From Escherichia phage HZP2: DNA of 32,448 nucleotides. The notes beneath the pieces are model-generated. The model worked only from the letters and a program-made list of their open reading frames with translations, made no database searches and was not told where the DNA came from. Numbering within the stretch: the first letter of the stretch is position 1; the number at the start of each line of letters is the position of its first letter. The position numbers were made by a program, and so were the translations under genes. Positions 3,889-16,066 of the stretch are shown one piece after another. The DNA is taken from sequence record NC_048164.1; one strand, 5' to 3'.

Positions 3889-3911
3889 TAATTCGACTCA
3901 CTATAGGGAGA
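3889..3911 (+). promoter_or_regulatory. T7 RNAP promoter (phiOR-like, right-end replication promoter)
   Basis: TAATTCGACTCACTATAGGGAGA, 21/23 match to the T7 class III consensus; positioned upstream of gene 19.5 as phiOR is in T7. Confidence 0.8.
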
Positions 3912-12164: not shown

Positions 12165-12167
<3 letters not shown>

Positions 12168-12187
12168 TACGACTCACTATTGGGGAA
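12165..12187 (+). promoter_or_regulatory. T7 RNAP promoter (phi2.5-like)
   Basis: TAATACGACTCACTATTGGGGAA. Confidence 0.8.
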
Positions 12188-12232: not shown

Positions 12233-12934
12233 ATGGCTAAGAAGATTTTCACCTCTGCGCTGGGTACTGCTGAGCCTTACGCATACATCGCTAAGCCGGA
12301 CTACGGTAACGAAGAGCGTGGCTTTGGGAACCCTCGTGGTATCTTTAAAGTTGACCTGACCATTCCCAACAAAGACCCGCGTTGTCAACGCATGGTCGAT
12401 GAAATCGTGAAGTGCCACGAAGAGGCTTATGCTGCTGCCGTTGAGGAATATGAGGCCAACCCGCCGGTAGTAGCTCGTGGTAAGAAGAAACCTATTGAAC
12501 CTTATGAGGGAGACATGCCGTTCATTGATAATGGTGACGGTACGACTACCTTTAAGTTCAAGTGCTACGCTTCCTTCCAAGACAAGAAGACCAAAGAGAC
12601 CAAGCACATCAATCTGGTTGTGGTTGACTCCAAAGGTAAGAAGATGGAAGACGTGCCGATCATTGGTGGCGGCTCTAAGCTGAAAGTCAAGTATTCGCTG
12701 GTCCCGTACAAGTGGAACAACGCTGTAGGTGCGAGCGTTAAGCTGCAATTGGAATCCGTTATGTTGGTCGAACTGGCTACCTTTGGTGGCGGTGAAGACG
12801 ATTGGGCTGACGAAGTTGAAGAGAACGGCTATGTTGCCTCTGGTTCTGCCAAAGCGAGCAAACCACGCGACGAAGAAAGCTGGGACGAAGACGACAGTGA
12901 GTCCTACGAAGAAGACGAAGACGGAGACTTCTAA
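12233..12934 (+). CDS. 2.5: single-stranded DNA-binding protein (T7 gp2.5 homolog)
   Basis: 233 aa MAKKIFTSALGTAEPYAYIAKPDYGNEERGFGNPRG... with acidic C-terminal tail ..EDEDGDF characteristic of gp2.5. Confidence 0.95.
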   Translation: MAKKIFTSALGTAEPYAYIAKPDYGNEERGFGNPRGIFKVDLTIPNKDPRCQRMVDEIVKCHEEAYAAAVEEYEANPPVVARGKKKPIEPYEGDMPFIDNGDGTTTFKFKCYASFQDKKTKETKHINLVVVDSKGKKMEDVPIIGGGSKLKVKYSLVPYKWNNAVGASVKLQLESVMLVELATFGGGEDDWADEVEENGYVASGSAKASKPRDEESWDEDDSESYEEDEDGDF

Positions 12935-13390
12935 GTGGCTGGCGCATACGCTGCGCGTGGAATCAGAAAGGTCGGGACATTCCGTTCCGGCCTAGAAGAT
13001 AAAGTCTCTAAGCAGCTAGAGGGTAAGGGTATCAAGTTCGACTATGAACTGTGGAAAATCCCTTACGTTGTCCCTGCGAGTAACCATGTCTACACTCCAG
13101 ACTTCCTGCTGCCTAACGGAATCTTTATTGAAACCAAAGGTTTATGGGAGAGTGACGACCGAAAGAAACACTTACTGATTCGCGAACAGTTTCCCGAACT
13201 GGACATCCGTCTGGTATTCTCAAGCTCACGCACCAAGCTGTACAAAGGGTCTCCGACCAGTTACGGTGAGTGGTGCGAGAAGCACGGCATACTGTTTGCT
13301 GACAAATTAATTCCGGTAGAATGGCTCAAAGAACCTAAAAAGGAGGTGCCATTTGACAAGTTAAAGCAATCTAAGGGAGGAAAGAAATAA
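12935..13390 (+). CDS. 3: endonuclease I, Holliday-junction resolvase (T7 gp3 homolog)
   Basis: 151 aa ..AGAYAARGIRKVGTFRSGLEDKVSKQLEGKGIKFDYELWKIPYVVPASNHVYTPDFLLPNGIFIETKG... matches T7 gp3. Apparent GTG start at 12935 immediately after the gp2.5 stop, with GGAGA ~8 nt upstream. Confidence 0.9.
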   Translation: MAGAYAARGIRKVGTFRSGLEDKVSKQLEGKGIKFDYELWKIPYVVPASNHVYTPDFLLPNGIFIETKGLWESDDRKKHLLIREQFPELDIRLVFSSSRTKLYKGSPTSYGEWCEKHGILFADKLIPVEWLKEPKKEVPFDKLKQSKGGKK

Positions 13391-13845
13391 TGGCTCGTGT
13401 ACAGTTTAAACCACGTGAATCTACTGACGCAATCTTTGTCCACTGCTCTGCTACTAAGCCAAGTCAGAATGTAGGTGTCCGTGAGATTCGTCAGTGGCAT
13501 AAAGAGCAAGGTTGGCTTGATGTGGGGTATCACTTTATCATCAAGCGCGATGGTACCGTGGAGGAAGGCCGAGATGAGATGGCTGTGGGTTCTCACGCCA
13601 AGGGTCACAACCATAACTCAATCGGTGTCTGCCTCGTTGGTGGCATTGACGATAAAGGTAAGTTCGAAGCTAACTTTACGCCAGCCCAAATGCAATCCCT
13701 CCGCTCACTGCTTGTCACACTACTGGCTAAGTATAAAGGCGCTGTTCTTCGAGCGCATCACGATGTGGCTCCGAAGGCTTGCCCTTCGTTCGACCTTAAA
13801 CGTTGGTGGGAGACGAACGAACTGGTCACGTCAGACCGTGGCTAA
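13390..13845 (+). CDS. 3.5: lysozyme / N-acetylmuramoyl-L-alanine amidase and RNAP inhibitor (T7 gp3.5 homolog)
   Basis: 151 aa MARVQFKPRESTDAIFVHCSATKPSQNVGVREIRQWHKEQGWLDVGYHFIIKRDGTVEEG..., near-identical to T7 lysozyme. Confidence 0.95.
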   Translation: MARVQFKPRESTDAIFVHCSATKPSQNVGVREIRQWHKEQGWLDVGYHFIIKRDGTVEEGRDEMAVGSHAKGHNHNSIGVCLVGGIDDKGKFEANFTPAQMQSLRSLLVTLLAKYKGAVLRAHHDVAPKACPSFDLKRWWETNELVTSDRG

Positions 13846-13846
13846 T

Positions 13847-13869
13847 TAATTGAACTCACTATAGGGAGA
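13847..13869 (+). promoter_or_regulatory. T7 RNAP promoter (phi3.8-like)
   Basis: TAATTGAACTCACTATAGGGAGA. Confidence 0.8.

Positions 13870-13905: not shown

Positions 13906-16066
<2,161 letters not shown>

Follow-up and report, generated by a model that had tools for sequence, protein, structure and literature searches.

In phage T7 (NC_001604), the GTG that directly follows the stop codon of the SSB gene 2.5 opens gene 2.8, which encodes an HNH protein of 139 aa. Gene 3, which encodes endonuclease I, follows with its own ATG, a strong SD (GGGAGG) and a 20-nt overlap with the end of 2.8. The product of the inserted gene, gp2.8, matches the Pfam family HNH_3. Proteins of this family are usually mobile, and we know of no demonstration of homing or cleavage activity for gp2.8. 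T7 genes 2.8, 3.8 and 7.7 have been described as free-standing HNH homing-endonuclease genes located between conserved genes, with 2.8 being treated as a dispensable, deletable homing endonuclease (bioRxiv 10.1101/2025.09.07.674715, 2025 preprint). In our search of the literature on T7 gene 2.8, this preprint was the only work found to mention the gene.

Other relatives are organized differently at this position. Phage T3 (NC_003298) and most other Studiervirinae are devoid of 2.8, and their gene 3 starts at the gene 2.5 stop, with the ATG overlapping the stop by one base (TAATG) and gene 3 in another frame. In Escherichia phage 13a (EU734174) and Yersinia phage vB_YenP_WW2 (OP161219), which also lack gene 2.8, a gp3 of 151 aa is annotated from a GTG directly after the gene 2.5 stop. 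Here, we compared the corresponding junction of Escherichia phage HZP2 with these systems, using a DNA stretch of 32,448 nt (NC_048164.1), in the following referred to as the window. The window is a genome segment of a Teseptimavirus, i.e., of the T7 genus.

Results

The SSB and endonuclease I genes of HZP2 are directly adjacent

The junction and its surroundings in the window comprise the following features:

12165..12187, + strand: T7-type promoter phi2.5, TAATACGACTCACTATTGGGGAA (differs from the T7 consensus at 3 positions; chance expectation, 0 matches)
12233..12934, + strand: gene 2.5, SSB, 233 aa (ORF list; Pfam SBB_T7, PF21265, E 2.9e-86)
12923..12927, + strand: SD-like GGAGA within the last gene 2.5 codons, GAC GGA GAC TTC (DGDF)
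12932..12934, + strand: TAA, stop codon of gene 2.5 (direct reading, ORF list)
12935..12937, + strand: GTG, start codon of gene 3 (direct reading; alignment; annotated gp3 start in 13a and vB_YenP_WW2)
12935..13390, + strand: gene 3, endonuclease I (Holliday-junction resolvase by homology), 151 aa, GTG start (ORF list, Pfam, PDB)
13390..13845, + strand: gene 3.5, amidase/lysozyme (90.8% nucleotide identity to T7 gene 3.5)
13847..13869, + strand: T7-type promoter phi3.8, closing the 2.5-3-3.5 block (matched in relative position by the annotated phi3.8 of T7)
13906..14394, + strand: ORF with HNH_3 and AP2 domains, 162 aa, at the gene 3.8 position (ORF list, Pfam)

Read directly, the sequence across the junction is GAC GGA GAC TTC TAA GTG GCT GGC GCA TAC GCT GCG CGT GGA ATC, in which the stop codon of gene 2.5 (12932-12934) and the start codon of gene 3 (12935-12937) are adjacent with 0 bases in between. 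The original prediction had placed the gene 3 GTG immediately behind the gene 2.5 stop, a GGAGA upstream of it, and gene 2.8 outside of this genome. Direct reading and the ORF list agree on the adjacency of the two codons, and the GGAGA is located at 12923-12927 with a spacer of 7 nt (CTTCTAA) to the GTG. The absence of gene 2.8 is likewise confirmed, as there is no base between TAA and GTG. Neither a gene 2.8-like ORF or sequence nor any other HNH ORF or remnant was found where genes 2.5 and 3 of the window meet. The interval 12926-12943, to which the prediction had pointed, takes in the last part of the SD together with the stop and start codons.

Gene 2.5 terminates in an acidic tail (...SYEEDEDGDF) with Phe as the final residue, which fits an SSB of the T7 gp2.5 type with a fold domain and a tail. 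At the other end of gene 3, the ATG of gene 3.5 overlaps the gene 3 stop in a classical TAATG arrangement. Genes 2.5 and 3 lie in one reading frame and are a single TAA apart (12233 and 12935 both leave a remainder of 2 on division by 3). T7 genes 2.5 and 2.8 likewise share a frame with one TAA in between. Compared to the TAATG relatives, the window has one extra base and an A-to-G change, resulting in TAA/GTG and in the same frame for both genes. As gene 3 of these relatives is in a different frame, the frame shared by genes 2.5 and 3 is probably incidental.

The gene 3 product belongs to the Phage_endo_I family by homology

The gene 3 ORF matches the Pfam family Phage_endo_I (PF05367) with an E value of 6.7e-82, its residues 1-149 aligning to profile positions 1-148 of 149, and it also matches full-length T7 endonuclease I (PDB 2PFJ, E 8.4e-87). 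The catalytic residues of T7 endonuclease I are E20, D55, E65 and K67; the aligned residues E21, D56, E66 and K68 of the window are identical (contexts GLEDKV, YTPDFLLP and FIETKG). An alignment to T7 gp3 from residue 2 onward had been predicted and is indeed observed (A2, G3), followed by a one-residue indel after these two positions (MAGAYAARGIRKV in the window vs MAG-YGAKGIRKV in T7 gp3). By homology, the gene 3 product is a member of the Phage_endo_I family and a Holliday-junction resolvase.

Gene 3 has a single usable canonical start, GTG 12935

An upstream extension of the gene 3 ORF is blocked by the gene 2.5 stop, the in-frame codon directly before the GTG. Downstream of GTG 12935, the next in-frame ATG, GTG or TTG is a GTG at codon 138, and a search for an alternative usable in-frame start in gene 3 yielded none before this codon. 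A start codon is present at the homologous position in all 38 aligned related junctions (38/38). Codons 2-12 of gene 3 are conserved as protein across clades, and the indels in this part of the alignment are in frame only. Judged from the sequence, no canonical start other than GTG 12935 is usable, and this start is as secure as sequence analysis allows. The start codon of the original prediction is thereby supported, the more so as 13a and WW2 annotate the same GTG.

Two other routes to endonuclease I have to be weighed against initiation at this codon. The enzyme might begin downstream at a non-canonical codon, e.g., at ATC codon 10 or CTG codon 39, with the GTG being left unused. In line with this, the combination of GTG and a 4-bp SD makes for a weak site, and T7 endonuclease I crystallised without residues 1-11 folds (PDB 1M0D and 1FZR, residues 12-149). 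However, ATG, GTG and TTG are all missing in frame before codon 138, and no SD was found upstream of the candidate near-cognate codons between GTG 12935 and codon 138. In addition, codons 2-12 are conserved at the protein level and the homologous position is a start codon in every relative, which together render a downstream start very improbable. Even more remote is the production of endonuclease I, in part or as a whole, as an SSB fusion by readthrough of the TAA, a route that we practically dismiss. The two ORFs do share a frame, as such a fusion would require, but TAA with a following G terminates efficiently in enterobacteria, and T7 gp2.5, whose tail is functionally important, needs its free C-terminal Phe for function. 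Moreover, frame sharing is not conserved, since most relatives exhibit TAATG and have gene 3 in the other frame.

Genes 2.5, 3 and 3.5 lie between two T7-type promoters, and gene 3 has a weak SD

The position of phi2.5 in the window equals that of the annotated phi2.5 of T7 and 13a. A consensus scan identified no T7-type promoter between phi2.5 (12165) and phi3.8 (13847), and neither a sigma-70 promoter nor a terminator was found when scanning the gene 2.5/3 junction. As they are flanked by T7-type promoters and lack an internal promoter or terminator at the junction, genes 2.5, 3 and 3.5 are expected to be co-transcribed. Across the window, eleven T7-consensus promoters occur on the + strand (3889-29908), confirming the T7-type RNA polymerase specificity of the phage. 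Perfect T7 promoter 23-mers start at four positions (21526, 24470, 25509 and 29886), and the T7-type promoters at 3889 and 4748 carry TAATTCGACTCAC.

The predicted duplex between the gene 3 SD and the 3' end of the 16S rRNA comprises 4 bp (-6.6 kcal/mol) and is the weakest among genes 2.5, 3 and 3.5. The corresponding values are -8.7 kcal/mol for gene 2.5 and -11.3 kcal/mol for gene 3.5 of the window, and -13.1 kcal/mol for gene 3 of T7. The SD site of gene 3 is doubly constrained, because it is situated inside the codons for the functionally important SSB tail DGDF. At the gene 3 start, no significant RBS-sequestering RNA structure was detected (MFE -21.5 kcal/mol, z-score -0.04); such a structure would argue for a dependence on upstream translation.

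The original prediction had also suggested a tight translational coupling of SSB and resolvase. The junction has the structure of a coupled pair, with adjacent stop and start codons, the SD inside gene 2.5, and promoter and terminator missing between the genes. Together with the weak SD and the lack of an intervening structure, this anatomy makes coupling of genes 2.5 and 3 plausible. The anatomical part of the claim stands, whereas the coupling itself we infer from it. In such a scenario, the phi2.5 transcript would carry genes 2.5, 3 and 3.5 together, and gene 3 would be translated from GTG 12935 with a modest SD (GGAG) inside the SSB D-G-D-F codons. Ribosomes would probably reach the GTG via termination and reinitiation after the highly expressed gene 2.5, in addition to weak de novo binding. 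The GTG and the 4-bp SD may keep the nuclease output low, and the outcome would be that a potentially toxic nuclease is supplied in small amounts linked to SSB.

A junction without gene 2.8 is the rule among the relatives of HZP2

The 1.3 kb around the junction are 98.7% identical to Yersinia phage vB_YenP_WW2 and 92-97% identical to many Escherichia, Salmonella, Shigella and Yersinia phages. The junctions of 13a and WW2 are identical to that of the window (TTCTAAGTGGCTGGCGCATA), and WW2 is 100% identical to it over the 80-nt junction. Apart from scattered point differences, both phages exhibit the same architecture as the window. Using the 80-nt junction as a probe at a threshold of at least 90% identity, we found the contiguous GTG junction in 49 phage records. 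An exact match to the junction GAYTTYTAAGTGGCTGG was obtained for 18 IMG/VR contigs; the T7-type junction running into 2.8 was found in 7 IMG/VR contigs, and the degenerate TAATG-overlap pattern matched 74.

Junction states were surveyed across 38 aligned related loci. The most frequent state was TAATG (17/38), and 13 of the 38 loci displayed TAA/GTG as in the window. TAA/ATG was present in a single locus, and a 2-nt spacer separated the genes in two. An inserted gene as in T7 was found at the junction in 4/38 loci (L026, L036, L037 and L041), while one locus (L040) has a spacer of 45 nt. Absence of 2.8 is thus the rule in the genus and among the wider relatives, and T7 is the exception. The arrangement of HZP2 is therefore already known: it is annotated in 13a, WW2 and dozens of Teseptimavirus genomes and is analogous to that of T3. 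Being the standard SSB-resolvase layout of T7 relatives, which is already annotated in curated records, the HZP2 junction matters little alone.

Different HNH genes occupy the gene 2.5/3 junction of other phages

The free-standing HNH insertions of T7, L026, L036, L037 and L041 occupy exactly the gene 2.5/3 junction, for which the window represents the empty site. Locus L041 derives from a much more distant phage and has a 2.8 ortholog (74% identical) at the same site, whose start codon is the ATG within a TAATG junction. Compared with T7, this indicates that the endonuclease gene takes whichever start codon gene 3 has in insert-free relatives. Three further, different HNH genes are located at the same site in L026, L036 and L037. 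In L040, the 45-nt spacer between genes 2.5 and 3 (1456-1500) has the translation SQSTISNIKGGKTW, which resembles the C-terminus of the junction HNH proteins, and it is followed by an SD (GGGAGG) and an ATG of its own for gene 3. This spacer appears to be the scar of a lost homing-endonuclease gene.

The window has no such gene at the junction but possesses one with HNH_3 and AP2 domains at the 3.8 position. The ORF (13906-14394) is located just after phi3.8 and extends up to the gene 4 start region. Its C-terminal part of about 100 aa is 49% identical to T7 gp3.8, and the N-terminal part is longer and different. With 2.8 being absent and this ORF being present, HZP2 lacks an endonuclease gene of the 2.8 type and possesses a variant of the 3.8 type.

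Extra sequence is also found between genes 3 and 3.5 in L017, an IMG/VR contig (about 1955-2400), and in L038 (about 1945-2215). As read from the alignment, that of L017 appears to encode an HNH-like motif (...EWTGAFHKNGYGV...). The gene 3/3.5 gap of L017 would be another insertion point for endonuclease genes, one gene downstream.

Mosaic structure points to a gain of gene 2.8 in T7

T7 and the window encode the same gene 3 enzyme family and have the gene 2.5 tail, TAA, GTG and GGAGA in common: in T7, the shared GTG, which follows the shared TAA and is preceded by an identical GGAGA, is the start codon of gene 2.8. At this boundary, T7 reads GACGGAGACTTCTAAGTGG followed by AACTGCGG and the window GACGGAGACTTCTAAGTGG followed by CTGGCGCA; the identity extends through TAAGTGG and ends at the next base. 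The nucleotide identity between window and T7 amounts to 91.9% in gene 2.5 and 90.8% in gene 3.5, compared to 72.1-72.6% in gene 3. On its right side, this T7-divergent block ends about 15 nt upstream of the gene 3 stop codon.

Gene 3 of the window is about 95% identical to that of the clade members L005, L010, L014 and L017. T7 gene 3 is the outlier version, as its identity to every one of the 19 other loci compared is 66-74%. A search of these 19 loci for a close donor of the T7 2.8+3 block was negative, as none exceeds 74% identity in gene 3. A T7-type gene 3 (at least 90% nucleotide identity) is present in 114 records and gp2.8 (at least 95% amino acid identity) in 112, nearly all of them T7 strains or derivatives plus a few named isolates, e.g., KKE5P and SYGE1. 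Gene 2.8 and the T7-type gene 3 form one linked block.

These comparisons suggest that the window keeps the original junction of its clade and that 2.8 probably came into T7 along with a foreign gene 3. As a whole, we consider it highly likely that HZP2 has a homing-endonuclease-free junction with a GTG-initiated gene 3, and that 2.8 was gained by T7 and not lost in HZP2; distribution and mosaic structure, rather than a rooted phylogeny, are the basis of this polarity. According to this explanation, the HNH homing-endonuclease-like gene 2.8 would have entered the T7 junction along with the divergent gene 3. It would use the resident GTG and SD, while its 3' end would supply the strong SD (GGGAGG) and the ATG for gene 3. 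The gene 3 start codon of the window stands where relatives have ATG, with TAATG in the wider group, TAAATG in one relative and TAAGTG in the HZP2 clade.

The original prediction had instead interpreted the absence of 2.8 as a deletion. If so, an ancestor of HZP2 would have possessed 2.8 and lost it by recombination between the TGG behind the 2.8 start (GTGG) and the TGG at the gene 3 start (ATGG), by which the 2.8 start codon was fused to gene 3. TGG is indeed present at both ends of T7 2.8 (TAAG-TGG-AACT ... GACA-TGG-CAGG), and a microhomology deletion between the two would produce a GTG-initiated gene 3; L040 also appears to show that an HNH gene can be lost at this junction. However, after a simple loss of 2.8 a T7-like gene 3 would be expected to remain, but gene 3 of the window is 72% identical to that of T7 between flanks of about 91% identity, and is thus not the T7 gene minus 2.8. 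A 45-nt scar as in L040 was not found in the window, which aligns contiguously with the endonuclease-less relatives. The arrangement without 2.8 is the majority inside and outside the genus, and relatives without an endonuclease gene provide a plausible ATG-to-GTG series (TAATG, TAAATG, TAAGTG). Furthermore, T7-like records show a strict linkage of 2.8 to the divergent gene 3. Taken together with the GTG shared by both genes and the HNH_3 membership of gp2.8, this leaves the predicted deletion in HZP2 unsupported, and we regard it as unlikely. The chances are similarly low that the HZP2 junction originated either from a precise deletion or from a replacement via recombination with an endonuclease-less phage.

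A gain in T7 would make the reference phage an atypical member of its group, with the 2.8+3 segment as a mosaic insertion that reuses resident start signals. T7 2.8 would then be a natural example of how a free-standing homing-endonuclease gene slots into a gene boundary with the expression of its neighbour unbroken. The reuse of the gene 3 start signals by 2.8 and the mosaic replacement of gene 3 fit a homing event with co-conversion, a reading of the T7 2.8+3 segment for which no statement was found in the literature searched. More tentatively, and with some doubt on our side, the empty TAA/GTGG/CTGG junction might be the natural target of a gp2.8-type HNH endonuclease, or lie beside it, with T7 gene 3 as the co-converted, cleavage-immune flank. 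In this case, homing would have handed the resident start codon and SD of gene 3 to the endonuclease and provided gene 3 with a new start. If true, the gene 3 region of HZP2-like phages would be selectively converted or excluded by T7 in mixed infections.

Annotation of gene 3 in related records

Because its GTG start directly follows a stop codon, gene 3 has remained uncalled or was misnamed in some genomes. In HZ2R8 (MG832642, L004, 1083-1538; also NC_047923), an intact endonuclease I gene is unannotated in both GenBank and RefSeq. The gene is named 'antirepressor KilAC domain-containing protein' in PVN09 (MZ220766) and 'lysin' in WX1 (OP168920). The record of Enterobacter phage KNP3 (KX452696 / IMG/VR contig 2974600192, 44,911 bp; L019, L100 and L136) contains both a TAAGTGGCTGG and a TAATGGCTGG junction. 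The presence of two SSB/endonuclease I junctions in one record suggests that it is a chimeric assembly of two T7-like phages or contains a duplication.
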